Assembly: GCA_016193335.1 (NCBI GenBank)
Contig: JACPSK010000001.1
Span: 422,962 to 486,961 of the forward strand
Source: Candidatus Magasanikiibacteriota bacterium
GTDB taxonomy: Bacteria; Patescibacteriota; Patescibacteriia; Magasanikbacterales; UBA922
Direction: 5' to 3'
Length of the DNA: 64,000 nucleotides
This document shows, in pieces, positions 2,187 to 53,754 of the stretch (position 1 is the first letter of the stretch; each line of letters opens with the position of its first letter). A program made the position numbers and the translations under genes. A model generated the notes under the pieces. It was not told the origin of the DNA. It worked only from the letters and a program-made list of their open reading frames with translations, and made no database searches.

Positions 2187-3341
2187 ATGTCACTCCACAT
2201 ATACGAGCAGATACAAAAACAAATTGAGGGTAAAAAACATATTTTGATATGTTTTGACAAGAACAGCAAAGGCGACGCAATCGGAAGCGCCGCGGCTTTT
2301 GCGTCTTTTCTAAAACAAAAAAGCCAACGCTTTGATATTGTTTCGGCCGACTTTGCCTTGCCCAAAGAATACGAATTTTTAAAAGAGACCAAAAACATAC
2401 AAAACGCCCTAAGCAAAGCCAGAAAATGTATACTTTCCATTGACATAAAAAACACGGGCCTCAAAGAACTGAGCTATGATCTCTTGGAAAATAAACTCCG
2501 CATTTTTATTACTCCAAAGCAAGGCTCCATACATAAAGAACAGATCAGCACCGCGCAATCCGAATATGTATATGATCTCATCATTGTCCTCGACACCCCG
2601 GATCTTCTCTCGCTCGGGACGCTATACACGAACAATACCGATTTGTTTGATCGCACTCCCATCATCAATATAGATCACAAACAGTCCAACGAACATTTCG
2701 GCCACATCAATCTCGTGGACATAACCGCGAGCAGCACTGCCGAAATTGTGTTTGCCCTCCTTGGCCGCGTCAATGGAGAATACATAAACGCGGAAACGGC
2801 CACCGCCCTCCTCACCGGCATGATCGGGGGCACAAACAGTTTTAAGGCAGAAAATGTAAAAACCCAGGCCCTTTCAGCCGCAAGCGAACTGGTGCGTTTG
2901 GGAGCGGACAGAAACTATATCATCAAAAATTTGTACCGAACCAAATCCATAGCCACCTTCAAACTCTGGGGCTCGGTTTTGTCTCACCTGGAATACGACA
3001 AAAATGCAGGCCTTGTCTGGTCTCTCATCACCAGAGAAGACTTCGCGCGTTCCGGAGCTCAAGAATCGGATCTGCACGCCATCATCAAAGAGCTTATTTC
3101 AAACGCCCCTGAAGCAAAAGTAATCCTGCTTCTCCACGAACATCCGGGAAGCGCAGATGCAGGAGCGATACACGGCATCGTGGAAAGCAACGGATCTGCC
3201 GATGCTCTGGAACTTAGCAAACGCTACAAAGGATCAGGCTCTCGCCAAAGCGCTTCTTTCACTATCGAAGAAGGAAAAAACCTCAAAGAAACGGCGGACG
3301 AAGTCCTGGATTATATCCGATCCTTACTGAAAATGAGATAA
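2187..3341 (+). CDS. DHH/DHHA1 family phosphoesterase (NrnA-like); start probably ATG 2187, downstream of the promoter
   Basis: A DHH-like segment (NIDHKQSNEHFGHINLVD), a GGT motif and overall DHH-DHHA1 architecture. This is a family-level call only. Confidence 0.65.
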   Translation: MSLHIYEQIQKQIEGKKHILICFDKNSKGDAIGSAAAFASFLKQKSQRFDIVSADFALPKEYEFLKETKNIQNALSKARKCILSIDIKNTGLKELSYDLLENKLRIFITPKQGSIHKEQISTAQSEYVYDLIIVLDTPDLLSLGTLYTNNTDLFDRTPIINIDHKQSNEHFGHINLVDITASSTAEIVFALLGRVNGEYINAETATALLTGMIGGTNSFKAENVKTQALSAASELVRLGADRNYIIKNLYRTKSIATFKLWGSVLSHLEYDKNAGLVWSLITREDFARSGAQESDLHAIIKELISNAPEAKVILLLHEHPGSADAGAIHGIVESNGSADALELSKRYKGSGSRQSASFTIEEGKNLKETADEVLDYIRSLLKMR

Positions 3342-3404
3342 ACTCATAAGGAATTTTAATTTCTAATTTTTAATTTTTAGTTTTTAAACAATTTTTGATG
3401 GCTT

Positions 3405-3490
3405 ATTTTTAATTATCTAAACGAAATACCGCTATCTGAAAGATACCTTCGCAGACTTGATCATTAGAAATTAAGAGAATAGAAATTCAT
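3405..3490 (-). repeat. intergenic repeat family copy A (core attctcttaatttctaat...ggtatctttcagatagcggtatttcgttt), inverted relative to copies B and C
   Basis: The reverse complement of 3413-3487 aligns at ~85% with 9178-9263. The core is flanked by AT-rich aatttttaattt/aaattgtaaattaaaaatt tracts. Confidence 0.6.
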
Positions 3491-3520
3491 TAAAAATCAT
3501 AAATTTTAAATTAAAAATTG

Positions 3521-5098
3521 TTAAATCAAAGGTCTTCCGGTCATCTCTTTGGGCGCTTTTACTCCCAAAATAGAAAGCACAGTCGGGGCCACATCCGCGA
3601 GCATGCCCACCGGATGAAGCAAACTCAAATCTCCGTTCGGCGGATCTCCGGCAGGGCCGCTCTGTCCATGATAGGCAGAACCGACAATGAGGAGAGGCAC
3701 CGGATTGGTGCTGTGTTCTTTATCTTTCTCACCGGTTTGCAAATTGATTACTTCTTCCGCGTTTCCATGATCGGCCGTAATGATGAGCACACCACCCTTG
3801 GCCAAAATTTGTTCGGCAATCTGTCCCAGGGCCTTGTCAACGGCCTCGCATCCTTTAATGGTCGCGGCGAGATTTCCTGTATGGCCCACCATATCCGCGT
3901 TCGCGAAATTAAGCATAATCAGATCATAAGAATCTGAATCTATGGCTTTGAGTACCTGCTTGGCGATTTTCAAAGCCGACATTTCCGGTTCTTTGTCATA
4001 AGAAGATACTTTCGGAGAAGGAATAATTTTACGATCCTCACCTGGGAAAGGATCCTCAATCGTGCCATTTATGAAAAAGGTAATGTGCGCGTACTTTTCT
4101 GTTTCAGCTATATGAAATTGTTTCAAACCTTTTTTACTTATCACTTCGGCGAGACAATTCGTTACCACCACTGGCGGATATGCCACCAAAACCGGTATGT
4201 CTTTTTCGTATTCTGCCATGGTCACAAACAAAAAATCTTTTATGGTTTCCCTGTGAAATTTGGCAAAGCTCGGCAGGGCGAATGCCTCAGTAAGCTGGCG
4301 GGCTCGGTCTGGTCTGAAATTAAAAAAAATCGCCGCGTCGCCTTTTTCAATCCTCGCCACCGGCTCATCCGCTTTGCCCATGACAACCGGCACGAACTCT
4401 TCATCAAAAATTCCCTTGTCATAAGAAGCCTTTACCGCGTCTTCAGGGTCTTTGTAATATTCGTCAGAGATTCCTTCGGCCATGGCCCGATAGGCCTTTT
4501 CAATTCTATCCCAACGGTTATCTCTGTCCATGGCCCAGTATCTTCCTGAGACAGAAGCAATCTCGCCTACTTTTATTTTTTTCATTACTTTTTGAAGAGC
4601 TTTCACAAAATCAATTGCGCTCTTTTCTTGAGTGTCGCGACCGTCGAGTATGGCGTGGACAAAAACTTTTTTTATTTTCTGTTTTTTGGCAAATTCCAAA
4701 AGAGCGTATAGGTGATCTTGGGCAGCGTGCACATTCCCCGGACTCAGCAAACCTATAAAGTGTAACCGCGTTTTTTGTTCTCTTACATGTTCAGCAGCTC
4801 TTAAAAAATTTTCATTTGAAAAAAAAGATTTATCCGCGATGCTCTTATTTATTCTGGGAAAAGTTTGATAATACACGCGACCCGCGCCAATGTTCAGATG
4901 TCCGACTTCCGAGTTGCCCATTTCACCGAAAGAAAGCCCTACTTCATTTCCAGACGCGTAAAGAGTCATGGCCGGATATTCTGCCATAAATTTATCCACG
5001 TTGGGCGTGTTGGCTCTCGCGATTGCGTTGCCTTCATGATCAGGCGCTATGCCCCAACCGTCAAGAACCGCGAGAACCACTGGTTTAGGATGGTCCAT
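3521..5098 (-). CDS. gpmI: 2,3-bisphosphoglycerate-independent phosphoglycerate mutase
   Basis: MDHPKPVVLAVLDGWGIAPD..NSEVGHLNIGAGRV; full-length iPGM. The ORF could extend to 5122. Confidence 0.9.
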   Translation of the reverse strand: MDHPKPVVLAVLDGWGIAPDHEGNAIARANTPNVDKFMAEYPAMTLYASGNEVGLSFGEMGNSEVGHLNIGAGRVYYQTFPRINKSIADKSFFSNENFLRAAEHVREQKTRLHFIGLLSPGNVHAAQDHLYALLEFAKKQKIKKVFVHAILDGRDTQEKSAIDFVKALQKVMKKIKVGEIASVSGRYWAMDRDNRWDRIEKAYRAMAEGISDEYYKDPEDAVKASYDKGIFDEEFVPVVMGKADEPVARIEKGDAAIFFNFRPDRARQLTEAFALPSFAKFHRETIKDFLFVTMAEYEKDIPVLVAYPPVVVTNCLAEVISKKGLKQFHIAETEKYAHITFFINGTIEDPFPGEDRKIIPSPKVSSYDKEPEMSALKIAKQVLKAIDSDSYDLIMLNFANADMVGHTGNLAATIKGCEAVDKALGQIAEQILAKGGVLIITADHGNAEEVINLQTGEKDKEHSTNPVPLLIVGSAYHGQSGPAGDPPNGDLSLLHPVGMLADVAPTVLSILGVKAPKEMTGRPLI

Positions 5099-5198
5099 AG
5101 AAAAAACATCTTGAAAAATCAATTCCTTCTCAATAGATTTTTGAAATTTTAACTTTCAATTTATAAATTTTTAAACAATCTTAGAGAATGATCCTCGC

Positions 5199-6797
5199 TC
5201 AATATCTGCCCAAGAGAGAGGCGCCGGTCATTTCTTTCGGCTTTTTTATGTTCATCAATTGTAGCAATGTAGGAGCCACATCGGCAAGCCTCCCGGTCCT
5301 TTTGCGGCAGCGCCTGCCTTTGAGATCCTGCCTAACCACTACAAAAGGTACCATATTGGCGGTATGCTCAGTTAAAGCTTCCCCGCTTTTTTCGTCAAGC
5401 ATGGTTTCCGCGTTTCCATGATCCGCCGTGATTATCACCTGTCCATATCTTTTCAAAACCGCCTGTACCAACCGATGGACTTGTTTATCAAGAAGCCGTA
5501 TGGCTCTCTGAGCCGCCTGGATATTCCCCGTATGACCAAGCATATCGGCATTAGGAAAATTTACAGCCACAAAATCATATTCCTTTTTTCGTATGTGCTC
5601 AAGTATTCGGGACGCCACAGCGCTCGAACGCATGCCCGGATTCTGTATATACGAATATTCATCCCCGGAACGAATGAGCTCCCGTTTTTCTCCATTGATT
5701 GGCTGAGGATAGCCACCATTGATAAAATAAGTAACATGAGCGTATTTTTCTGTCTCAGATATGTACAATTGTCTATAGCTTGAACCTATGGCCTTGGCCA
5801 GGCACTCTGATATATCCGGGCTTGGAAAAGCGGTAAGCATATTGGGAAGATCCGGACCAAAATCCGTCATAGCTACAAAACGTATATCTTTGGGCCAACG
5901 TTTTCTTTTGAATGATCCTGGATTTTTTTTTGCGAAATCAGGCTGGACAAAAGCCTTGGCCAATTGCCGAGCTCTGTCGCTCCTGGCATTGAAAAAAAAC
6001 ACAGCGTCATTGTCTCCTACCGTGGCTATGGGACGCCCGGCTTTGCATATGATACTCGGCTGTATATATTCATCATTTTCACCTCGGTTGTAAGCTTCGG
6101 CTATAGCGTCTTCCGCGCTTCCGTCTTTGAGACCAGAACCCAAAACCATGGCATGGTAAGCCTTCTCGGTCCTCTCCCATAATTTATTCCGATCCATGGC
6201 GTAGAAACGTCCGATGACAGTGGCGATTTTCTCGCCATTCTTCATGCGCGCTCTCAGGTTGCTGAGATATCTAACCGAAGAATGGGGAGAAGAATCTCGT
6301 CCATCAGTAAATAAATGCAAAAAAACTTTTCTATGTTTATTCCTTCTGAAATAATCCAAAAGGGCGTAAAGATGATCTGGATGAGCATGGGCGCTCTGCC
6401 CATCAGTGAGCAAACCCATAATATGGGCGGCTGTATTGTGTTTTTGTATGTGACACAGAGCTTGGTGAAAAGCTTCATTTTTAAAAAAAGTGCCGTTTTT
6501 GATCGCTTCGGAAATCATCAGCAAATCTTGTTTAAGCACCCGACCGGCGCCGATGTTTAGATGCCCTGCTTCGGAATTTCCGGCTTGCCCGGGAAACAAA
6601 CCGACATCAACTCCGTGCGCCTTAAGACGGGCGCTGGGATAAGAACGCAGATATTCAAATATATGAGGAGCCTGCGCCGGAGTTATGGCGTTTCCTTTAC
6701 GAGTGAAATCGGCCAAGCCGAAGCCATCCAAAATAATAAAAAGAGTGAGCCGCTTTTTATTATCATCACTTATCTTTTTTTTAGTTTTTATTACCAT
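5199..6797 (-). CDS. second, divergent iPGM-family paralogue (phosphoglycerate mutase-like, alkaline-phosphatase superfamily)
   Basis: LFIILDGFGLAD..GNSEAGHLNIGAGRV and a C-terminal ADHGNAE motif. It lies in tandem with gpmI. Confidence 0.8.
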   Translation of the reverse strand: MVIKTKKKISDDNKKRLTLFIILDGFGLADFTRKGNAITPAQAPHIFEYLRSYPSARLKAHGVDVGLFPGQAGNSEAGHLNIGAGRVLKQDLLMISEAIKNGTFFKNEAFHQALCHIQKHNTAAHIMGLLTDGQSAHAHPDHLYALLDYFRRNKHRKVFLHLFTDGRDSSPHSSVRYLSNLRARMKNGEKIATVIGRFYAMDRNKLWERTEKAYHAMVLGSGLKDGSAEDAIAEAYNRGENDEYIQPSIICKAGRPIATVGDNDAVFFFNARSDRARQLAKAFVQPDFAKKNPGSFKRKRWPKDIRFVAMTDFGPDLPNMLTAFPSPDISECLAKAIGSSYRQLYISETEKYAHVTYFINGGYPQPINGEKRELIRSGDEYSYIQNPGMRSSAVASRILEHIRKKEYDFVAVNFPNADMLGHTGNIQAAQRAIRLLDKQVHRLVQAVLKRYGQVIITADHGNAETMLDEKSGEALTEHTANMVPFVVVRQDLKGRRCRKRTGRLADVAPTLLQLMNIKKPKEMTGASLLGRY

Positions 6798-8981: not shown

Positions 8982-9177
8982 ACAGTGAAAATTTATAATT
9001 TGTAATTTGTAATTTTTAATTTAAATGATAATTTGAAAATCTTTACAGTGGCATTATACCATACAAGAAAAAAACAAGAAATCCATCATTTGTCTCAAAC
9101 ATAATCATACCAATGCGAGAGGAACTAACATTTTAATTTTTAATTTATAATTTTTATCCAATTTTCAATCTTTAAAC

Positions 9178-9263
9178 AATTTCTATTCTCTTAATTTCTA
9201 ATAGCTGAGTCTGCTATAAGGTATCTTTCAGATAGCGGTATTTCGTTTGGATCATTAGAAATT
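9178..9263 (+). repeat. intergenic repeat family copy B
   Basis: aatttctattctcttaatttctaat…aaggtatctttcagatagcggtatttcgtttggatcattagaaatt, flanked by AT-rich tracts. Confidence 0.6.
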
Positions 9264-9294
9264 ATGTCATTACAAATTGTTTAAAAATTATAAA

Positions 9295-10491
9295 TTAACG
9301 CAAAGCTTCAATCCCCGGCAGTTTTTCGCCGGACAAAAACTCAAGCATCGCTCCTCCGCCCGTTGACACCAAATCAATATATTCTGTCATGCCCGCCATA
9401 TCCATACTTTGTAAAGTTTCACCACCGCCTATCACGCCATAGGCTTTACCTTTTGAACGGGAGGCAACGAGACGAGCTACGGCCAAAGTAGCCACATCAT
9501 AAGGCTTTTGTTCAAATACTCCCATGGCGCCGTTCCATACGAGAGTCTTGGCTTGTTTTATATAAGACGCGAAAAGACGAACGGTTTTCGGCCCCATATC
9601 AAAAATCGCTTCATTTTTTTTGCAGATCAGATGCGGCTTTTTCTCAATATCCACCACTCTAAAAGAACTGCCTCGCGGATTTCCCACCACCAGGTCCAGC
9701 GGCTTAATGACTTTTTTATTTTTGCCGTAAAGCATCGCCTTCCGCGCAAGGTCTTTCTGGACCAAAGAAGCTCCCACACCATAGCCGCGGGCGTATAAAT
9801 AGGTGTTTACCAAAGCTCCTCCGAGCAATATATTTGTTACCTGAGGCAAAAGATGTTTGATAACCGGAATTTTGGTCTCAAGTTTGGCTCCGCCCAACAC
9901 AAGCACAAAAGGTCTTTTTGGCCTTTTCATCACTTTTTCCAAGCCTCTTATTTCTTTTTCCAAAAGCAAACCGGCGTAAGACGGGAGAAAACGCGTGATT
10001 CCAAGCACCGAGGCCGCGGGACGATGAGCCACCGCAAAGCCGTCGAGCACAAATATGTCGGCCAGGCTTGCGAACAGCTCTGCCAATGACTTGTCATTTT
10101 TTTCTTCTCCAGAAGAAAAACGCGTATTTTCAAGCATGGCGATTTGAGAATCTTCCAGATGATTTATTTCAAAACGCACTTTATCCGCTCGCTTCTCAGA
10201 CCAGCTCCAATTTCCCGTATTTATATATTTCACGCCCTTGCCGAGCATAATGCCAAAATGTTCGGCCACCGGAGCAGTAGAAAATGATGGCACTATTTTG
10301 CCCCCCGGCCTGCCAATATGAGTAAGCAAAATAATCTTAGCTCCTTTTTCCATTAAATACTGAACTGTGGGTAAAGATGCTTGCAAACGAGAATGATCAA
10401 GCACTCGGTTCTTCAATAGAGGTACGTTAAAATCCACTCTCAGCAAAACGCGCTTTCCCTTCAATTTTTTTAAACTTTTGATGGATTTCAT
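9295..10491 (-). CDS. pgk: phosphoglycerate kinase
   Basis: VLLRVDFNVP…; full length. Confidence 0.95.
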   Translation of the reverse strand: MKSIKSLKKLKGKRVLLRVDFNVPLLKNRVLDHSRLQASLPTVQYLMEKGAKIILLTHIGRPGGKIVPSFSTAPVAEHFGIMLGKGVKYINTGNWSWSEKRADKVRFEINHLEDSQIAMLENTRFSSGEEKNDKSLAELFASLADIFVLDGFAVAHRPAASVLGITRFLPSYAGLLLEKEIRGLEKVMKRPKRPFVLVLGGAKLETKIPVIKHLLPQVTNILLGGALVNTYLYARGYGVGASLVQKDLARKAMLYGKNKKVIKPLDLVVGNPRGSSFRVVDIEKKPHLICKKNEAIFDMGPKTVRLFASYIKQAKTLVWNGAMGVFEQKPYDVATLAVARLVASRSKGKAYGVIGGGETLQSMDMAGMTEYIDLVSTGGGAMLEFLSGEKLPGIEALR

Positions 10492-13352: not shown

Positions 13353-13520
13353 AGAAAATATTTCCTTTATCCTCCTCCATCCTGCCCGCGCGCGTCTTGG
13401 CGCTTTGGGAGGAAATAAAATGGATAGAGTGAGGGATATAAATTAAGTATGCGCAAAGTGTATAGGATACTTAAAATTTTGTCAATGCTAATGTATCAAA
13501 ACTTGAATCTTAAAATTTCA

Positions 13521-13613
13521 CAAAAGAACTGTTTCAGGAGACTGCGGAGCGCGATCTGGCGCGAGCCTGAGCGAAAATTCAGCAGAATTTTACGCGTGCT
13601 CCTGAAACAGTTA
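13521..13613. repeat. perfect 14-bp inverted repeat (aactgtttcaggag / ctcctgaaacagtt) enclosing a 65-nt GC-rich loop
   Basis: Read directly from the sequence. It lies upstream of rpsB on the minus strand, adjacent to the GC island. Confidence 0.5.
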
Positions 13614-13662
13614 TTTTGTGAAATAAAATTTTAAAATAAATAAAAACACTTAGAAATGAAGA

Positions 13663-13700
13663 AGGACGGCCACGCATCTGCGCAACCGTCCTTCCAAGGG
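13663..13700 (-). terminator. candidate intrinsic terminator for the GC-rich gene
   Basis: On the minus strand: gaaggacgg…ccgtccttc (9-bp GC stem) followed by a U-rich tract. Confidence 0.35.
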
Positions 13701-13726
13701 TAGCTTCTGCCACCCTACTCCTTACT

Positions 13727-15322
13727 TCACTTCTTTTTGTTCTTACCACCACCCTTCTTCGGGTGGTCCTCCTTGGCCGGCGCCTCGGGCGCGGGGACCT
13801 GGTCCGAGGCCGTGGGCACCTCGACCTGATCGGCCGCGGCCTCCGCCACCTCGTCGGGGACGGACGGCATGGTCTCCGCGGCATCGGCCTCGGCCGTGGG
13901 CTCCGTGGCCAGGACGACCTCGGTGGCCGGCTCCGGCGCGACGGCCATGCCCTGGTCGGCCTTGGCCACCGCCTCGTCCTCGACGACCGACGTGGGCTCC
14001 GCCACAAGGTCAGCAGACGCGACCGGCACCGCCTTCGGCTCCCGCTTGGGCTCGGGGAGGCCGAGCTTCCGGCGGACCATGCGGTCCAGCTCGGTCGAGC
14101 TCATACCCCCCGCGGCCTTACGGAAGGCCTCGGCCACCGGTTCGACCCGATCATCCGCGGGGTTCTCCTGGTGGTGCTTGGCCTGGCGCTCGGCCGCGGC
14201 CTCCTTGAGGAGGCGCGTGACATCGAGGTTCCCGAGATCCGCGTCCTCGGGGAGAGCATCGACGATGCGCCTCGCCGACTTGTTGGCGGACTTGACGGTG
14301 GGCACGCCGCCCATCCTCACCAGCCGCTCCCCGATCTCATCCACGAGTCGCTTCTTCGCCATGCGACGCGTGCGCTTGGCCTCGTCGGCCTCGGCCAGCG
14401 CCAGGAGCTCGGCACGCTCGGCCTCGATCTCCTCGCGGCTCCGCGGCCGGGGCATGCTGAAGAGCATGGCCAGCTCGGGGAGCTTGCGGGCCTCCCGAGC
14501 GATATTCATCTTCTGCGGGTCATCGGCGCTGATCTCTCGGATCTGTTCCTTGGTCATCACGCCGTGAGCCCGGAAGACCCTCTCCAGCTTGTCGAGCAGA
14601 TTCTGGAGCGTCCGAACCCGCTCCCGGTAGAGGCCGACGGCCTCGCCGGTGAGGTTCGGCTGGTCCTTCCGGAGCATGCCCTGGAGCTTGCGCATGTGCA
14701 TCTCCGTGAGGATGACGAAACGCATACCCGCGGACCACTTGGCGTTCCGCCAGACCAAGTCCGGGAAGATCCCGGCCAGCTCGGTCCGCAGGGGGTGCCC
14801 CACCTCGATGGGCCCGCGCTCCGGCGGCGGGGCGACCACGCGGGCCGTCTGTCCGCCCTCGTCCGCCAGCATGGCCGTGCCGGCCTTCGAGTGGCCGTTG
14901 CCACCGACCTTGCCCTTGGGGGTCTCGACGGCGGGCGGCGGGGCCACGGGCGCGGGCTCGGCGGGCTCCTCGTCGTCCTCGAACAGGAAGGCCATGGCCG
15001 CGGCCTGGGCCGCCTTGGCCTCGGCGATCTGCGCCTCGACGCCGCGCTTCCACTTCGTGACCATGAGGCCGCGACCCTCGGGGGTCGCGAGGAGATCCTC
15101 GGCCTTCATCGCAGCCAGACCGCGGAGGATCCGCTCGGACTTGGCCTTCGCCGCCTCGTCCTTGGCCACGGCCTGTTCGGCCTTGGCCTTCGTCGTCTTC
15201 TCCTCGATCAGCTGGACCGCGGTGGCCAGCAGCTCCTCGTTCGTGGGCTCACGGACGGTCGTGCCGTCCGACGTGAAGAAACCCGACTCGGATGCCACAA
15301 CCGCCTGCGTCTCATCGCTCAT
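13727..15322 (-). CDS. hypothetical acidic Ala/Glu/Lys/Pro-rich protein (~533 aa) in a high-GC island; no family recognised
   Basis: Continuous minus-strand ORF with G/C at nearly every third codon position. The start is taken at MSDETQAVV, and the tail ends KKGGGKNKKK. The flanks are AT-rich. Confidence 0.55.
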   Translation of the reverse strand: MSDETQAVVASESGFFTSDGTTVREPTNEELLATAVQLIEEKTTKAKAEQAVAKDEAAKAKSERILRGLAAMKAEDLLATPEGRGLMVTKWKRGVEAQIAEAKAAQAAAMAFLFEDDEEPAEPAPVAPPPAVETPKGKVGGNGHSKAGTAMLADEGGQTARVVAPPPERGPIEVGHPLRTELAGIFPDLVWRNAKWSAGMRFVILTEMHMRKLQGMLRKDQPNLTGEAVGLYRERVRTLQNLLDKLERVFRAHGVMTKEQIREISADDPQKMNIAREARKLPELAMLFSMPRPRSREEIEAERAELLALAEADEAKRTRRMAKKRLVDEIGERLVRMGGVPTVKSANKSARRIVDALPEDADLGNLDVTRLLKEAAAERQAKHHQENPADDRVEPVAEAFRKAAGGMSSTELDRMVRRKLGLPEPKREPKAVPVASADLVAEPTSVVEDEAVAKADQGMAVAPEPATEVVLATEPTAEADAAETMPSVPDEVAEAAADQVEVPTASDQVPAPEAPAKEDHPKKGGGKNKKK

Positions 15323-15497
15323 GGTCGCAATCTCCAATCGAACGCCGATGCGTTCGATATCAAAAAAATTAAGAACACACTCAAAAGCCTCGCAAACCCA
15401 AGGTACGACCCCAAGAAAGCGTGACTCGAGCCAGAGACTATAGCGAATGATAATGAATTTGTCAAGTATAGGCCTCAACAGAGCGAAAAAATCGCCC

Positions 15498-15526
15498 TTG
15501 ACAGCGAAAAAGCCGAGTGTTATACT
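15498..15526 (+). promoter_or_regulatory. consensus sigma70 promoter TTGACA-17-TATACT
   Basis: TTGACA at 15498-15503, a 17-nt spacer, then TATACT at 15521-15526, ~40 nt upstream of the rpmE ATG. Confidence 0.6.
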
Positions 15527-31372: not shown

Positions 31373-33991
31373 ATGGCAGCACTTTTCAGAAGAAGGGAAT
31401 CTGTACCAGAACCGCATACTGAACCAGCCGAGAACGATGGCGGAGATTTCGACGCGGACACAAAAAAATGGTTCGCGGAATTTGAGGGTGATAATCCGTA
31501 TGCCAAACCGGGCATGATGGCCAAAGTAGCCGCGTCGGACAGAGCAGACGCAGAATACAGGGCAAGAATGAAGGCTCCTGAACCAAAAAAAATGCGCGAG
31601 CCAAACAGACTGGCCAAATTTTTGGGCCTGGGAGTCTTGAGAAATTGGGAAAAAGAAGCTGCGTGGCTTGAAGAGCAGGAAAAGATGAACAGAGAAACAG
31701 CGGAACGCATAGCCGCTGAGCATACGGTGGAACAAAATCTTAAAAGGGCCGGCGAAGAGGCCGAAGAGACTCAAGCGGCCCTAAGACAAGCTCAAGGTAA
31801 GGCTGGTGAAGGAACCCCCGGGGCTCTGCGCCTCCGTGTATTATCTGGGGAAGCAAGACAAAATAAAAGAGCTCTAACATTTGCGGCCAGGAATGCCAGG
31901 GCAGAGCTTAGAATGGTAAGACCGGTAGACCCCAAAAGCGTCCCCGAGAAACGTATTCAAGAGCTTCTCGACGAGGCTGAAGACGAAGATACACTTTCCT
32001 ACGGCCAAGACGGGCATATGCCTTTTGAGTCTTCAGGACAAAAACCAAAAGCAGAAGATACTCAACAAGCCAACGCAGAAAACGCCGAAGACCCAGCTCT
32101 GGAAACTGTAAAAGCAGAGCTCTTGGCCATGTTTAAGGCGGAAGAAAACGAAGGTGTGCATCCTGAAGTCTTGGCAGACGATATAGTAAAGAGTGATTTT
32201 GTGCTTGGGGATCCTGAGCAGGCTCTCAAAGCTCTCTCTGATACCATTAGTGGACTCAAAAAAGGATTGCTAAAAAGAGGCATACGCGTAAGTGAGGAAG
32301 GCACCGTACTTCTTGATAAAGGATCCACGCGAGAAAAGCATCGGGAATATGAAAAACACAGAAAAACAGTGGATTGGCTGCAGGCTCTGATACTTGCGAA
32401 GGAGAAACTGGAGGCTAAGCAAGATACAGATGTGGCGGCTGGTGAAGATGACGATGACCAGCAAGAAAATCAAAATGCAGAATCAGATAATGCAAGAACA
32501 AGCGACAGAAAAAGTGAGGAAACTGAAGAGGGCGAAGGCGCGGAAAAAACTCTAACAGCAGAAGATCTCCTCGCGCAGATTGACATGGACGGAGAGCTCG
32601 TGGATGTGGTGCACCAACTGGCAAAGTTCGACGCATTGGACACTTCCAACACCGCAGGCCGACACCATGTTGATGATCTAATTGCCGAATTAAAAATAGA
32701 TCTTGAAGACCAAGGATATGAATTCGATGAAACAGGAGCAATAAAGCTTGATGATGAATCGAACCCAGTAACCGGAATAAAATACAAAAATCCCGATGAT
32801 AAAGGAAAAATAAAACTTCTACAAGGCTTATACGAAATGAGAGAACTCGAATCTTCTTCTCGCAAACAAAACGACGCCGTGGGATACGGCGAAGGCCAAG
32901 AATTTCCTTTTGATTCTTCCACTCCGGAAGAATATATAGGAAAAGAAGCGGACGAAGACGTTAAAAGACTCGCCTTGCGGATAAAAAACATGAAAAAAAT
33001 ATCAAATCCGCATGAAGGTCTTAAACGCAGGATCGCGGAGTTGCAGGGAGAACTGAGAGATTTAAAAAAAGGCAAAAAGAAAAAAACAGACCCGGAAAAA
33101 CCTCAAGCTACCCTTCACGAACAAACAGATATAGCAAGAGATGGAGAAGATGGAAACAGACCTTCAGAACTTGCGCCAGACCTGTCTGTTGAAAACGCTC
33201 AAGGAGACCATACGGAAGAAGACCCGAAAGAAATTGCTCTACGAAAGGTAAAAGCAGAGCTCTTGGCCATGTTTAAGGATGGGGATAATGAAGGCGTGCA
33301 TCCTGAAGTATTGGCAGGCGATATATTGGACAGTGATTTTATGCTAGAGGATCCCAAACTCGCGCTTGAGGCAGTGTCTGACTCAATTAGTGGTCTGAAA
33401 GATGGTCTCTTGAAAAGAGGCATACGAGTAAGTGACGAAGGAGCTGTCCTGCTTGATAAAGGATCTACCCGCGAACAAAACCCGAAGCACGAAAAACACA
33501 GAAAAACAATAGATTGGTTACAGGCTTTTATTAAGGTAAAAGAAAAACTAGAAAGACAATTGCAAAATCAAAACGACAAAGCCACAGCCTACGGCGAAGA
33601 CGGAGAAATGCCTTTCGAATCTCCAAAACTAAGCTTAGACGAGCGGATAAAACGGCTTACTCTGCGCGTAGAAACCATGAAAAAAATAACAAAGAAACCA
33701 CATGAAGGTCTTAAACGCAGGATCGCGGAATTGGAAGAGAGATTGGAAGCACTCAAAATGAAAAAAACAAAAGAAAAAGAAACCCAAGAACCTAAATCAG
33801 AACTTGCAGGCCGCCAAAAACCCCGAAGTACAAAGAAAGACGATATCCGAGCTCTTGGAGAAGAAATACAAAAATTGGATATCGAAGAGTTGGCCGAACG
33901 GCATAGAAACCCGCGGCGTGCCTTAGTCAGACAAAGCGGACCAAAAAGAGGGGCAGATGGAGACAAGGATACGCTTAAAAAAGCGGCCTGA
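31373..33991 (+). CDS. hypothetical 872-aa acidic, charge-rich protein with internal ~107-aa and ~60-aa repeats
   Basis: Two ~320-bp DNA repeats (32095-32415 and 33235-33555, ~80% identical), plus PHEGLKRRIAEL-containing repeats. No signal peptide and no family recognised. Confidence 0.6.
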   Translation: MAALFRRRESVPEPHTEPAENDGGDFDADTKKWFAEFEGDNPYAKPGMMAKVAASDRADAEYRARMKAPEPKKMREPNRLAKFLGLGVLRNWEKEAAWLEEQEKMNRETAERIAAEHTVEQNLKRAGEEAEETQAALRQAQGKAGEGTPGALRLRVLSGEARQNKRALTFAARNARAELRMVRPVDPKSVPEKRIQELLDEAEDEDTLSYGQDGHMPFESSGQKPKAEDTQQANAENAEDPALETVKAELLAMFKAEENEGVHPEVLADDIVKSDFVLGDPEQALKALSDTISGLKKGLLKRGIRVSEEGTVLLDKGSTREKHREYEKHRKTVDWLQALILAKEKLEAKQDTDVAAGEDDDDQQENQNAESDNARTSDRKSEETEEGEGAEKTLTAEDLLAQIDMDGELVDVVHQLAKFDALDTSNTAGRHHVDDLIAELKIDLEDQGYEFDETGAIKLDDESNPVTGIKYKNPDDKGKIKLLQGLYEMRELESSSRKQNDAVGYGEGQEFPFDSSTPEEYIGKEADEDVKRLALRIKNMKKISNPHEGLKRRIAELQGELRDLKKGKKKKTDPEKPQATLHEQTDIARDGEDGNRPSELAPDLSVENAQGDHTEEDPKEIALRKVKAELLAMFKDGDNEGVHPEVLAGDILDSDFMLEDPKLALEAVSDSISGLKDGLLKRGIRVSDEGAVLLDKGSTREQNPKHEKHRKTIDWLQAFIKVKEKLERQLQNQNDKATAYGEDGEMPFESPKLSLDERIKRLTLRVETMKKITKKPHEGLKRRIAELEERLEALKMKKTKEKETQEPKSELAGRQKPRSTKKDDIRALGEEIQKLDIEELAERHRNPRRALVRQSGPKRGADGDKDTLKKAA

Positions 33992-38663: not shown

Positions 38664-40103
38664 ATGAGACGTCGTGAATTCTTAAAAGGATTAGGGGCCG
38701 GAGCAGCTACTCTATTTTTTACTGGTGACAAAGATAACAAACCAACTCCAGCGCCAATGGAGTCCGAAACCGAGAATGAGAGAGAAAGACCTTTTAGTTA
38801 CAGTGACTTTCTGGAAGGACGCCCTGAATTTTCAAAAAACGCGGCATTGTCTGAACGCGTAGAACAAGCATGGGGAGACGGCACGGCCCTGCTCGATTAT
38901 GTGGCTGATCGCATTCCAGCTGTCATGTCCATTGATTTCCCAAAATCCAAACCTATCAACGAGCTCCTACGCAAAAATTATCCGAAAGTCGTCCCTAACA
39001 TTTTTCTGCAAGACCAGGCTGAAAATGAACTAAGACAAATAGGCCAATGGCTCAGTCTCCTCGCACATATTGCTGGCGCAGAAAGACCATACACGCCAAA
39101 GCTTGTGGACCAGGTGCTTGATTATCTCTACCAAAATAGGGGAACGGGCTTGGCTGATAGAAGTGAAAGTCACATCATGTCGCTCGAAGGCGAACTCGCT
39201 GAACATGCGCCGCAAGACTCTCGCCTACTGTCTCTCATCGAGCAAAGATACAAACAAGGAATTTCAAGCTCTTCGGGTAGTAATGACGACAGTGTTTGGC
39301 ACACAGAGGACGCCAGATTTCCAAGCACACCAGAATTAAGCTGGCTTATGGCCACAGCCGCTCGTTTGCATATGGGGTATGATGAAAAAAAATTTCGTTT
39401 AGTAGAAGAACTCGCTTACGACTTTGATACTGAAGGCAGACAAATATTCAATAACCGAATACCCGAAGTACAGGCATCACCACGAGATTTGGCTGAAGTG
39501 GCATTATACTATATGACTCCTCCAAAAAGTGAGTCAGATCGGCGACGTATTACCATGTCCGGAAATTGGGGCTTTATTGAACATGGCGCCCACGTTGTCC
39601 ATGGAGGACTGCTTCTTTTAGGAACTTACCAAAAAGAAATGGCTGATCGTGATCCTGAACTGCTCAAAAATTTACGCGCTCAGACTTACGAATCGATAAA
39701 AGAGATACTTTTCTATCGTCATTCAGACTCTATTAAAGACAAAAATAAACCTAACCAACAACGAGCGCACGAAGATTACCTCTACGGCGGCCACTTACTG
39801 CAAGCCGTGCTTGATGAACAAGCTGGCGCTATTTTTGAGATACAGGGTGAATTTTTCACCGCTCAGCAAGTCTATACCAAATACGGATCAGAGATTGCAG
39901 AACATGCGGAAAAAATAACAAAAAGTGAAAAACCTGTCACAGACTATGACGCGCTTGATGTATTAGCCACCATCGCAGATCTAGCCGCAAGCGACCTCAG
40001 ACCTGTCGTAGAACACAGCACAGCATCAAAAAGTTCGGTACCTTTTTATGTCGGCCACACCATAGCCGGGCTCAATAGATTAAGGGAAATTATAAAAAAA
40101 TAA
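38664..40103 (+). CDS. hypothetical secreted protein with a twin-arginine signal
   Basis: MRRREFLKGLGAGAATLFF (an RRxFLK Tat motif). No domain recognised. Confidence 0.5.
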   Translation: MRRREFLKGLGAGAATLFFTGDKDNKPTPAPMESETENERERPFSYSDFLEGRPEFSKNAALSERVEQAWGDGTALLDYVADRIPAVMSIDFPKSKPINELLRKNYPKVVPNIFLQDQAENELRQIGQWLSLLAHIAGAERPYTPKLVDQVLDYLYQNRGTGLADRSESHIMSLEGELAEHAPQDSRLLSLIEQRYKQGISSSSGSNDDSVWHTEDARFPSTPELSWLMATAARLHMGYDEKKFRLVEELAYDFDTEGRQIFNNRIPEVQASPRDLAEVALYYMTPPKSESDRRRITMSGNWGFIEHGAHVVHGGLLLLGTYQKEMADRDPELLKNLRAQTYESIKEILFYRHSDSIKDKNKPNQQRAHEDYLYGGHLLQAVLDEQAGAIFEIQGEFFTAQQVYTKYGSEIAEHAEKITKSEKPVTDYDALDVLATIADLAASDLRPVVEHSTASKSSVPFYVGHTIAGLNRLREIIKK

Positions 40104-40166: not shown

Positions 40167-41105
40167 CTATTTTCGGCCGGCTTCAAAATCCAAGATCCAC
40201 TCGTTCGCCTCGGTGAACCTCTCGTAGAGCCAGGTCTTGATGGCCAGCTGATCTTCCGCCTCATCCGGCAGAACGCCAGGCGGCTCCACCAGCTCAAAAC
40301 GCACGAGAGCGCGAGTGCCCCCGTCTTGTGCTTTTCGAGCCAGCATATCCCAAGATTCGGTTTCACCATCCGGCTCAAGGCCGGGAGAAAACGCGGTGCT
40401 CATAAAGACCACCTGGGCTCCCGGAACCCCGCGGATCAAGGCCTGCGTCCCCCGGTAAGAAGGCGCGAGAGTCCGAAGGCTTTTTAGACTCAACAAAGGA
40501 TACCCCATGCCATGAAAGAAACGCAGGGCATCGGCGCGGCGGCCTCGGAAAGGCCTGCTCCTATCCGGAAAGAGCATAAAGAGCGGCGCCCGCTCACCAT
40601 TCAGGTTCGCAAGCCCTGCTTTGATAGCCGAGACCGCGGAGTCGCCCTTGCGCTTGCGGATAAACATGCCGCGAGCCAGCTTGACTCCAATGGCGAGCGG
40701 TATTGCTTGCCAGCGGTGCTTGGCGTCCGCCACCACGCGGGGCACCTTGCCACCGAACAAGTCAAGGATGTGTTCCACCATCCCCGGGATCACAGAGGTA
40801 AAGGGATGCGGGCCAATAAGCAGAATAGGTCGTTCATGGTCTATTCCCTCAAGACCCTGTGTCTCCCTTTCAACTTTCAAACCAAGGGATGGATAGCACT
40901 CCTTCATGGTCTCGACAATCCAGGACCGTACATAGGGCGCCATTTCCTTGCCCCTGATCCAAACCGCCCACAAAGCCCGCGCAAAAACCCAGCGGGTCAA
41001 AATCACCAACGCGCGCCACAAAATGCGTTTGCCGGAAACAAAATCAGGCGTTTTGCTCATCTCAGCCATGTTGCGTCCCTCCGTGTTTCCTATTTCTTCT
41101 ACCAT
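40167..41105 (-). CDS. hypothetical protein in a GC-rich island; weak acyltransferase-like resemblance (…LFPDRSRPF…)
   Basis: G/C-rich third codon positions. The family call is tentative only. Confidence 0.4.
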   Translation of the reverse strand: MVEEIGNTEGRNMAEMSKTPDFVSGKRILWRALVILTRWVFARALWAVWIRGKEMAPYVRSWIVETMKECYPSLGLKVERETQGLEGIDHERPILLIGPHPFTSVIPGMVEHILDLFGGKVPRVVADAKHRWQAIPLAIGVKLARGMFIRKRKGDSAVSAIKAGLANLNGERAPLFMLFPDRSRPFRGRRADALRFFHGMGYPLLSLKSLRTLAPSYRGTQALIRGVPGAQVVFMSTAFSPGLEPDGETESWDMLARKAQDGGTRALVRFELVEPPGVLPDEAEDQLAIKTWLYERFTEANEWILDFEAGRK

Positions 41106-41169
41106 TTTCAGAGTTCTGTGTCAATCGCTCTTGCTTATTTGTTTGTATTTGTTCGATTCATTTATAAAA

Positions 41170-41245
41170 CAAAAACCACCCTCGTCCGATCTACATAATT
41201 ATTATTATGAATATCGGACGTTTGAGGGTGGTTTTGATTTCTCCT
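41170..41245 (-). terminator. long hairpin terminator (aaccaccctcgtccgat…atcggacg…gagggtggtt) followed by tttttgtttt on the minus strand
   Basis: ~17-bp stem with a 22-nt loop, read directly. Confidence 0.5.
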
Positions 41246-51624: not shown

Positions 51625-52191
51625 ATGTCTACTTTCCCACACGAAGGACTCCCCGTACAGCCACTACAAAACGAAGACCAAAAACATCCCCAAAGACGTC
51701 ATCTGAGAGCTGTAACCGATCCGGATGAAACAGAAACTCAAAGCAGGGAAGCACTGCTCAGACAGAGGCGAGAGCTTCTCGAGAGAAAAGCGCAAATAGA
51801 ACGCGATTTTGCTAGCCAGATAGCGGCACTGAACGAAGAGTTAAAAACAGTAAACGACTCCATATTGGGCATTTCGGATACGCATAATTCGGGAGTCCGC
51901 AATCGCAAACGCGAAAAGGCACTTGAGGCATACGCAAGAAGCCCTGAATCTCTCATTGAGCATTGTATAATAACAATCACACTGAGACGCACGGACATAG
52001 AACGTTACCAAAGTATGCTCGCTGGAGAACGAAAACGCCAAATAAGCGAAAAAGACAGGCAAGCTTTGACAGATGAAAAAATCGAAGCAAACATCAAGAC
52101 GCTCCAAGAAGATATAGATAGAGCCTGGGACCGAATTAAAGAAATAAGCTCAAACATAAATGAATCCGAAAGAGAACAAAAGGTCGCCTGA
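51625..52191 (+). CDS. hypothetical coiled-coil protein
   Basis: ORF rich in heptad-like E/K/R. It is preceded by an aaattgtaaattaaaaa motif. Confidence 0.4.
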   Translation: MSTFPHEGLPVQPLQNEDQKHPQRRHLRAVTDPDETETQSREALLRQRRELLERKAQIERDFASQIAALNEELKTVNDSILGISDTHNSGVRNRKREKALEAYARSPESLIEHCIITITLRRTDIERYQSMLAGERKRQISEKDRQALTDEKIEANIKTLQEDIDRAWDRIKEISSNINESEREQKVA

Positions 52192-52998: not shown

Positions 52999-53754
52999 AT
53001 GGGTGAAACAAGCAGATTCGCCGCGGAACCCGGGCTGAGAAAGCCAAGCGAACCGAAGCATGATGATCATGCGATTAGTCCTGGCGAAGAAGAGTGGTTC
53101 GAAACGCGCACAGACCTTCCCTATCCCACTGACCCTCAAGAAACACGGACCATGGTAGATTGGGATGGCACCGACATCGGGAGCCCCAAAGAGAGCGGTC
53201 AACTGCGCGACGACAGACCACGATCAAAGCTAGAACGGAGAAAACGATACAGCCAAGAAGAGGCTGATGTTTTGGTTGGCGACTTGGCTTCTGTGGCCGC
53301 GGAGTTAAAACAAGAACCGCAAGCCGCTTCTGACACAAAACCAAGAGCCGGGCAAAATAAGGACGTTTCTTCAACTAGCCTCAAAGAGGTCGGCATTAAA
53401 CTCGAAGTCCTCGGAAACAATCTCAATCTTCTGAAGAGACTCCAATCCATGCCGGATGATAACGCTGAAAAACAATTACACCTGCGGCAGATGGGCTTTC
53501 CCAACAATTTAGAACTTGAGACACGAATTGATCAGGTGCAAAAACAAATCATGGAAGCGCAGGAACACAGAAATTTTCTTGAAATTGCTCCTCCCACTGA
53601 TTACGAAAAGGAACATGGCAATACTGGCTTCGACCAGGCGGCATGGTTCGCCGATGAAGATGAAGCGCCACGAGTAGTCGAACGCATACTGCGTGAAAAA
53701 GGAGAACAACAACTAGAGCCGGAAGACTTTGATGAGATGAATGAAAGACTCTAA
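52999..53754 (+). CDS. hypothetical acidic protein
   Basis: ORF only. Confidence 0.4.
   Translation: MGETSRFAAEPGLRKPSEPKHDDHAISPGEEEWFETRTDLPYPTDPQETRTMVDWDGTDIGSPKESGQLRDDRPRSKLERRKRYSQEEADVLVGDLASVAAELKQEPQAASDTKPRAGQNKDVSSTSLKEVGIKLEVLGNNLNLLKRLQSMPDDNAEKQLHLRQMGFPNNLELETRIDQVQKQIMEAQEHRNFLEIAPPTDYEKEHGNTGFDQAAWFADEDEAPRVVERILREKGEQQLEPEDFDEMNERL

Follow-up and report, generated by a model that had tools for sequence, protein, structure and literature searches.

A GC-rich gene between rpmE and rpsB

We analyzed a stretch of 64,000 nucleotides (64 kb, hereafter the window) from the 686-kb contig JACPSK010000001.1 of a groundwater Candidatus Magasanikbacteria metagenome-assembled genome (MAG), where one gene of very high GC content, termed here the island gene, lies between rpsB–tsf on one side and rpmE–prfA on the other. 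A first-pass annotation, made from the nucleotide letters alone, had described it as a minus-strand open reading frame (ORF) for an acidic protein of 533 residues some 300 bp from rpsB. The ORF at 13727–15322(−) was recovered, its product (MBI2989927.1) having 531 residues, and the distances to rpsB and rpmE amount to 374 bp and 242 bp, respectively. The acidic, Ala/Glu/Pro-rich composition and the KKGGGKNKKK tail described for the product were likewise recovered.

The overall GC content of the window is 45.2%. Calculated over 300 bp at a time, the GC fraction rises from 0.40–0.45 on one side to 0.64–0.76 over ~13750–15250 and reaches 0.41–0.48 on the other, with a sharp step down to 0.40–0.48 within ~150 bp of the island on both sides, so that the change proposed by the first-pass annotation was found at both boundaries when actually computed. 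The ORF itself has a GC fraction of 0.702, with 0.73, 0.46 and 0.915 at codon positions 1, 2 and 3, respectively. For the neighbors gap, tsf, rpsB, rpmE, prfA and prmC the GC fraction at third codon positions (GC3) is 0.39–0.52, bearing out the noted contrast between G/C-ending codons and A/T-rich surroundings, and the 50 other ORFs of the window average 0.463 (standard deviation 0.052, maximum 0.65), placing the island gene 8.8 standard deviations away. Glutamate is encoded by GAG in 95% of cases (host 21%) and lysine by AAG in 97% (host 19%), and the Lys/(Lys+Arg) ratio of the protein is ~0.5. Recoding the protein in host codon usage gave a GC3 of only 0.48, indicating that its amino-acid content is not the cause of this dialect. 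Composition and codon usage thus both deviate strongly, as is typical of acquired genomic islets.

A codon-by-codon scan showed the onset of the G/C-ending dialect at the ATG (15322) and its fading only over the final ~10 codons, GC3 being 0.81 over the ~26 initial codons and 0.58 over the 12 final ones. The regulatory parts (promoter, leader and terminator) are all AT-rich and in host style, the GC-richness being confined to the coding sequence (CDS). A second and much milder compositional outlier of the window is a 312-residue ORF at 40167–41105(−) with a GC of 0.57 and a GC3 of 0.65; it yields no Pfam match and is overlapped by a plus-strand ORF at 40512–41198.

An ortholog of the island gene is present on a contig from another aquifer, Hainich well H51 (L014, ENA ERZ1292634; L-numbers are labels of retrieved loci or contigs), which carries rpmE followed by a homologous AT-rich intergenic region and the high-GC ortholog in the same orientation. 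Over 176 alignable codons we obtained a non-synonymous divergence (dN) of 0.205 and a synonymous divergence (dS) of 0.50, with a 95% confidence interval (CI) of 0.27–0.61 for their ratio ω. Amino-acid identity is highest in the sense frame (0.66) and lowest in the long antisense one (0.51). This antisense frame, stop-free over 553 residues at 13763–15424 of the plus strand, stayed open in 48% of codon-position-preserving shuffles, identifying it as a by-product of having G or C (S) at every third base, in line with the suspicion that the Arg/Gly-rich plus-strand frames are a high-GC artefact, and we rejected it as a real gene. The sense ORF, by comparison, stayed open in 0.7% of the shuffles. 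With an ORF longer than expected by chance and evidence for purifying selection, the CDS is a genuine protein-coding gene.

Beyond this ortholog, the island gene represents a protein family without detectable relatives. An exhaustive phmmer search of 1.84 billion cluster representatives returned only the island protein itself and the Hainich fragment, the PHROGs, NCBIfam and PADLOC profiles gave no match at E ≤ 1, and sequence searches of Pfam and the PDB gave none above threshold. The closest Pfam entry, DUF5855 (PF19173), showed a weak local match to a charged helix at residues 301–353, which, scoring 18.3 bits where the gathering cut-off is 28 (E = 0.0025; 53/182 profile positions), does not make the protein a member. 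No homolog was obtained with tblastn against phages and plasmids, nor any match in scans of JGI metagenomes (peptide patterns and a conserved 25-mer covering the Shine–Dalgarno (SD) sequence and ATG) and IMG/VR (peptide patterns and the leader block), and cluster look-ups of the Hainich fragments yielded no further orthologs. In word-index searches, neither the whole protein nor the two-ortholog alignment retrieved anything but the island protein itself; as this index missed the 66%-identical Hainich fragment and, queried with the exact 265-residue central substring, the protein itself, its negatives call for caution where a protein is GC-rich and of low complexity, and we discarded the one for the central domain. 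The statement that the product matches no recognized family therefore holds across sequence, profile and fold searches, whereas the actinobacterial or phage donor suggested alongside it did not appear in any set searched: acquired islets may have an identifiable donor or homologs elsewhere, and here neither was found.

Prediction with AlphaFold from the single sequence (pTM, the predicted template modeling score, 0.26 and 0.42) suggested an all-helical protein with disordered segments (Table 1), and fold searches gave only generic, non-specific helical hairpins. The charges are unevenly distributed, with a pI of 9.7 for the core (171–425), a net charge of −17 for the acidic disordered tail (426–521) and +6 for the last ten residues (KKGGGKNKKK). 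No signal peptide or transmembrane segment was seen, the maximal Kyte–Doolittle hydrophobicity over 19-residue windows being 0.82, and the product is predicted to be cytoplasmic. Enzymatic motifs were not present in the protein. The product might act as a non-enzymatic scaffold or adaptor that would use its basic helical core and polybasic tail to attach to nucleic acid or membrane, an interaction modulated by the acidic disordered regions.

The inserted module and its junctions

The coordinates of the module and of the related features are collected in Table 1. The promoters of the island gene and of rpmE (15498–15526(+)) stand back to back, with a transcription start of the island gene predicted near 15430. 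Both hexamers of the island promoter are identical in the Hainich ortholog, the spacer differing at two positions. The intergenic region is 84% identical to its Hainich counterpart (L014 553–662). In the distal stem of the leader hairpin the sequence differs and the pairing is kept (ACGC/GCGT in the window, GTC/GAC in Hainich), and in a consensus fold of the two leaders the conserved 19-nt block pairs with the SD, a hint from two sequences that the leader may be a translational control element. We rejected the possibility that it is a duplicate of the rpsB leader, there being no similarity between them. Neither flank gave an Rfam match, at the gathering score or at E ≤ 1.

On the other side of the gene, the 3' flank folds with a z-score of −8.6, and the GC-rich hairpin terminator proposed by the first-pass annotation was found, with 16 pairs and a T-rich tail. 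An inverted repeat sits between this terminator and the rpsB promoter. No other copy of its arm sequence exists within the window, and we rejected it as a repeat family or mobile-element end, as it is unique to the locus; an invertible switch was also rejected, since the contig breaks described below fit a branch between haplotypes rather than the borders of arm and spacer. Two relatives (L041, L034) align significantly to the rpsB promoter and leader of the window (13487–13353) and not to the island leader, from which the inserted module is delimited to ~15470–13500.

Table 1 Features of the rpmE–rpsB interval, of the island protein (AlphaFold prediction) and of the corresponding interval in relatives
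Feature	Position	Strand	Description
Island promoter, sigma-70-type	15437–15465	−	TTGACA, 17-nt spacer, TATAGT; 11/12 consensus matches
AT-rich 5' leader, ~105 nt	15323–15436	−	contains conserved block, hairpin and SD
19-nt leader block	15371–15389	−	identical in window and Hainich lineages
Leader hairpin abutting SD	15337–15358	−	pairs in both lineages
SD, GGAG	15332–15335	−	
High-GC CDS	13727–15322	−	531 residues + stop; GC3 0.915; ω CI 0.27–0.61
Small hairpin ahead of terminator	13697–13716	−	
Intrinsic-terminator-like hairpin	13660–13695	−	16-bp stem, then T-rich tail
Haplotype breakpoint	13603..13604		co-existing strain contig L011 diverges
Inverted repeat, 26-nt arms	13515–13624		arms 13515–13540 and 13599–13624, 96% complementary; 58-nt spacer
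Ancestral rpsB promoter	13457–13485	−	TTGACA, 17-nt spacer, TACACT; rpsB leader follows to 13353
Protein: N-terminal hairpin	residues 28–114		predicted helical
Protein: linker	residues 112–169		predicted disordered, Pro-rich
Protein: core	residues 177–420		predicted helical; pLDDT (predicted local distance difference test) 82–92 over 296–390
Protein: C-terminal region	residues 421–531		predicted disordered
ORF in interval of relative L021	3449–5821	rpmE orientation	790 residues
ORF in interval of relative L025	4035–5828	rpmE orientation	597 residues
ORF in interval of relative L036	4415–5830	rpmE orientation	471 residues

The first-pass annotation had left open an assembly chimera. Identical DNA including both junctions is, however, present in the independently assembled NCBI MAG GCA_964404105.1 (32-kb contig), and the rpmE-side junction recurs in Logan assemblies from at least eight further runs (100% identity) as well as, in the form of the ortholog, in Hainich. 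Independent data thus support both junctions.

At the rpsB side, many Logan contigs end at position 13574 of the window and those coming from rpsB end at 13603; the 30-nt overlap of these ends equals k−1, indicating a branch in the de Bruijn graph. Contig L011 (SRR12113384) matches the window from tsf to 13603, apart from a single mismatch and a single gap immediately ahead of the breakpoint, and continues with unrelated, AT-rich DNA carrying the end of another ORF (...DLMEALHDWNGGNVAEGRKAVLVLE, then stop; L011 1–134). The breakpoint lies inside the distal arm of the inverted repeat, of which L011 holds only a degenerate copy, and the L011-specific DNA was not found in IMG/VR scans. Other contig ends consist of Nextera adapter sequence. 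The contigs thus break where strains truly differ, and mis-assembly is not the cause. The ends of two more contigs (L010 and L002) suggest a second branch near 13585/13586.

These data bear on the proposal that the feature is an artefact or a mis-annotation, i.e., an assembly chimera, a non-coding GC block or a locus whose true gene is the plus-strand Arg/Gly-rich ORF. It would account for long open frames on both strands and for the many Logan contigs ending near the 3' junction. Two MAG assemblies nevertheless run across both junctions and many assemblies across the 5' one, the contig ends are explained by the haplotype branch together with adapter-tipped, low-coverage ends, the antisense frame is the least conserved and readily open by chance, and the period-3 GC pattern (0.73/0.46/0.92) and an ω below 1 mark the minus-strand frame as coding. 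We regard this proposal as scarcely credible.

Insertion site, age and persistence of the dialect

To compare the insertion site, we retrieved 80 GTDB loci through RpsB. Seven of the closest Magasanikbacteria (L030, L032, L033, L035, L037, L039 and L096) have an empty site, with divergent rpmE and rpsB genes lying ~200 bp (184–250 bp) apart, and the same close divergent arrangement occurs in Uhr-, Kerfeld-, Niyogi- and Nealsonbacteria as well as in Saccharibacteria. The view that the island gene had entered one of the most conserved ribosomal neighborhoods was thereby supported, the adjacency of rpsB and rpmE that was to be checked in related genomes of the candidate phyla radiation (CPR) being present, in divergent orientation, in many of them. 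Neither a homolog of the island protein nor a comparable GC step was found in any of the 80 loci.

Other Magasanikbacteria carry unrelated inserts of 0.6–4.7 kb in the same interval, some of them single ORFs of 471–790 residues. The three listed in Table 1 are polar, of low complexity and ordinary GC, and unrelated to the island protein; the ORFs found in the interval in relatives were considered and rejected as homologs in an AT-rich dialect (phmmer E > 0.5). Multi-gene inserts of 3.9–4.7 kb are found in L043 and L048. The promoter interval between rpmE and rpsB is thus a recurrent cargo slot in Magasanikbacteria. In one further locus (L026), a small ORF at 3126–3653(+), directly upstream of rpsB, codes for a product with a signal peptide and a tail rich in Ala, Pro and Lys (...KKRPPKKPAPPPDKK) and has a local GC of 0.70 against a background of 0.51; this patch was rejected as an island homolog, being a small, unrelated secreted ORF. 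As for mobility hallmarks, there is no tRNA in the 64 kb, the flanking genes are all housekeeping genes and flanking direct repeats are absent, so that the integrase or transposase, tRNA or direct repeats that can accompany acquired islets were not found.

The Hainich contig provides an estimate of the age of the insertion. Between window and Hainich, rpmE shows 87% protein identity and a dS of 0.72 (CI 0.44–1.18), and the island protein shows 66% identity and a dS of 0.50 (CI 0.36–0.67). As the promoter, leader, SD and exact ATG context are common to both, the simplest reading of the sequences is one insertion before the split of the two aquifer lineages. The GC3 amounts to 0.915 for the window copy and to 0.93 for the Hainich ortholog, indicating for these two lineages that the GC-rich dialect has remained undecayed since that split. 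Substitutions at synonymous third positions follow different spectra in the two genes: 26/35 changes in the island gene are G↔C, compared to 0/29 in rpmE, where 27/29 exchange S for A or T (W) or the reverse (Fisher p = 2e-11), and S/W differences occur at only ~13/177 third positions of the island gene. A two-state amelioration model, with a host equilibrium GC3 of 0.40–0.50 and an S↔W divergence of 0.3–0.67, predicts a present GC3 of ~0.67–0.83, and the neutral expectation was put at about 0.70–0.82, compared to the observed 0.92–0.93. The drift of composition towards the host that is expected of an acquired islet was thus not observed.

The first-pass annotation had offered a recent insertion as one of two options, and a transfer from a high-GC donor too young to have ameliorated would agree with the extreme composition, the empty sites in close relatives and the orphan protein. 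This reading is now largely refuted and very improbable, as a second lineage, separated from the window by an rpmE dS of 0.72, has a 66%-identical ortholog (dS 0.50) at this site, preceded by the same leader, and as the regulatory flanks are wholly in host style. Moreover, a third-position turnover that is almost exclusively G↔C contradicts a passive reading of recent, unameliorated horizontal transfer.

We also considered that GC-biased gene conversion (gBGC), or another local bias at the DNA level, acted at a recombination hot spot, driving up the GC of a native gene and keeping it high, which would agree with the variable rpmE–rpsB interval, the unrelated inserts of the relatives and the strain breakpoint at 13603/13604. 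Such a bias would need to halt exactly at the start codon, sparing the leader, the terminator, rpmE and rpsB, and it is this coincidence of the compositional edge with the start codon that makes it unlikely for a native gene. A comparable GC3 was seen in no other insert of the interval nor in ~0.85 Mb of related loci, and a shift in GC3 from 0.46 to 0.92 lies outside the range known from bacteria, where reported gBGC effects are far smaller. We hence consider this explanation improbable.

Further observations concern the remainder of the window. Two tandem, full-length paralogs of iPGM (phosphoglycerate mutase) at 3521–5122 and 5199–6797(−) adjoin enolase, pgk and gap, a notable pair for a reduced CPR genome. 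A sequence of ~130 nt occurs twice in inverted orientation with ~85% identity (3370–3494 and 9168–9298; noticed among secondary BLAST hits for L001 and L009), each copy lying at a gene end in this glycolytic cluster, near the iPGM paralogs and pgk. Several further ORFs of 188–872 residues (31373–33991, 38664–40103, 51625–52191 and 52999–53754) begin with an acidic or polar stretch and match no Pfam entry at E ≤ 0.001. No Rfam family reached the gathering score anywhere in the window.

Maintenance of the composition and comparison with known systems

On balance, and with modest confidence, we favor a real, single-gene module of ~2 kb, inserted between the rpmE and rpsB promoters, of high-GC origin and with its composition held in situ. 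In a Magasanikbacteria lineage, the self-contained module (roughly 15470–13500) entered the region where the rpmE and rpsB promoters ancestrally stood back to back, the CDS probably deriving from a high-GC source and being placed under local regulatory signals. A force at the level of the CDS or the mRNA would now maintain its composition, most likely selection against A/T at synonymous sites, for instance for a highly structured or nuclease-resistant mRNA. In-situ selection, or a bias limited to the CDS or mRNA, fits the shared junctions, the matching dS values and the lack of any donor.

The main competing explanation is that an unseen homolog in a high-GC organism or phage, e.g., the host of the episymbiont, repeatedly overwrites the CPR copy by recombination, so that the synonymous sites of the island gene evolve under the high-GC regime of the donor. 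This would explain a substitution spectrum resembling that of a high-GC genome, in which S→W changes are too rare and G↔C changes too frequent, and a locus that varies between strains; a dialect that stops at the CDS ends, with the lowered GC3 at both termini, is also expected if recombination needs anchors within the CDS. On the other hand, protein sets of 5.8 billion and 1.84 billion sequences (same-run assemblies included) yielded homologs in CPR contexts only, phages, plasmids, JGI metagenomes and IMG/VR yielded none, and the similar dS of island and flank would be a coincidence. Furthermore, the Lys/(Lys+Arg) ratio of the island protein is atypical of a proteome at 70% GC. We regard conversion from a donor pool as rather unlikely, and in-situ maintenance was weighed above it because the databases, including assemblies of the same samples, hold no donor. 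More broadly, it is possible, though tentative, that the nucleotide composition itself is the maintained trait, be it through selection on the CDS or mRNA or through continual conversion from scavenged DNA of a high-GC partner.

Several observations weigh against an insertion held in situ by selection. We know of no mechanism that selects a GC3 of 0.92 in a single gene, and GC1 and GC2 of the island gene (the GC fractions at first and second codon positions) are raised too. Counted per site that is S in both lineages, G↔C differences amount to 41/159 = 0.26 at third positions of the island gene, 11/86 = 0.13 in the host leader and non-coding DNA, and 0.03 in rpmE, i.e., the island rate is ~2x that of host non-coding DNA and ~8x that of rpmE. 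Filtering of host mutations accounts for the scarcity of S→W changes, but may fall short of explaining all the G↔C changes, and this excess fits divergence under a high-GC mutational regime better. The evidence for persistence comprises two lineages and 176 aligned codons, the Hainich contig having a coverage of 1 and a frameshift. The gene is also dispensable or replaceable in at least part of the population, a co-existing haplotype lacking the island at the rpsB-side junction. The scaffold or adaptor function, proposed with low confidence from composition and single-sequence AlphaFold models, is the weakest step of the argument.

Foreign composition is routinely taken as a sign of recent transfer, since acquired DNA is expected to drift towards the host. 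Here, a single CPR gene has kept an extreme dialect while its synonymous turnover was about that of its neighbor. If this holds with more orthologs, it would point to unusually strong selection on synonymous sites or mRNA in a genome of few genes, or to an ongoing DNA link between episymbiont and partner. Should conversion from a high-GC partner prove true, the gene would be a molecular tag for the host of the Magasanikbacterium.

Among known systems, the PopZ-, DivIVA- and Scy-like scaffolds of high-GC bacteria are Ala/Glu/Pro-rich proteins combining coiled coils with disorder. The island protein resembles them in being acidic and Ala/Glu/Pro-rich, with a predicted helical hairpin or coiled coil and disordered linkers; however, we found no sequence or fold match to them, and those families lack both a basic helical core and a KKGGGKNKKK tail of this kind. 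A general concept of comparative genomics is the integration hot spot, a chromosomal site with conserved core genes on either side. The rpmE–rpsB interval is similar in holding different, unrelated inserts and in varying between co-existing strains, and it differs in that the slot lies between two divergent ribosomal-protein promoters and the cargo is a single gene devoid of mobility functions.

The classic amelioration model for acquired DNA is reportedly that of Lawrence and Ochman from 1997. It has been restated more recently (bioRxiv 10.64898/2026.07.20.739530; PMC12455944), and old transfers are described as turning invisible through changes in GC and tetranucleotide composition (PMC12455944). 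Contrary to its prediction, the composition of the island gene has not converged over a dS of ~0.5. With acquired orphan "genomic islets" the island shares a foreign composition and codon usage, relatives that lack the gene at a conserved site and an absence of homologs; it differs in lacking the hallmarks of integrase, tRNA or direct repeats, and in that its foreign dialect is confined to the CDS, with promoter, leader and terminator in host style. Together, the island behaves as a horizontally acquired orphan islet in a core-gene hot spot, without mobility hallmarks or a donor. The gene family is new, and, judged from one additional lineage, the persistence of its foreign dialect is unusual.

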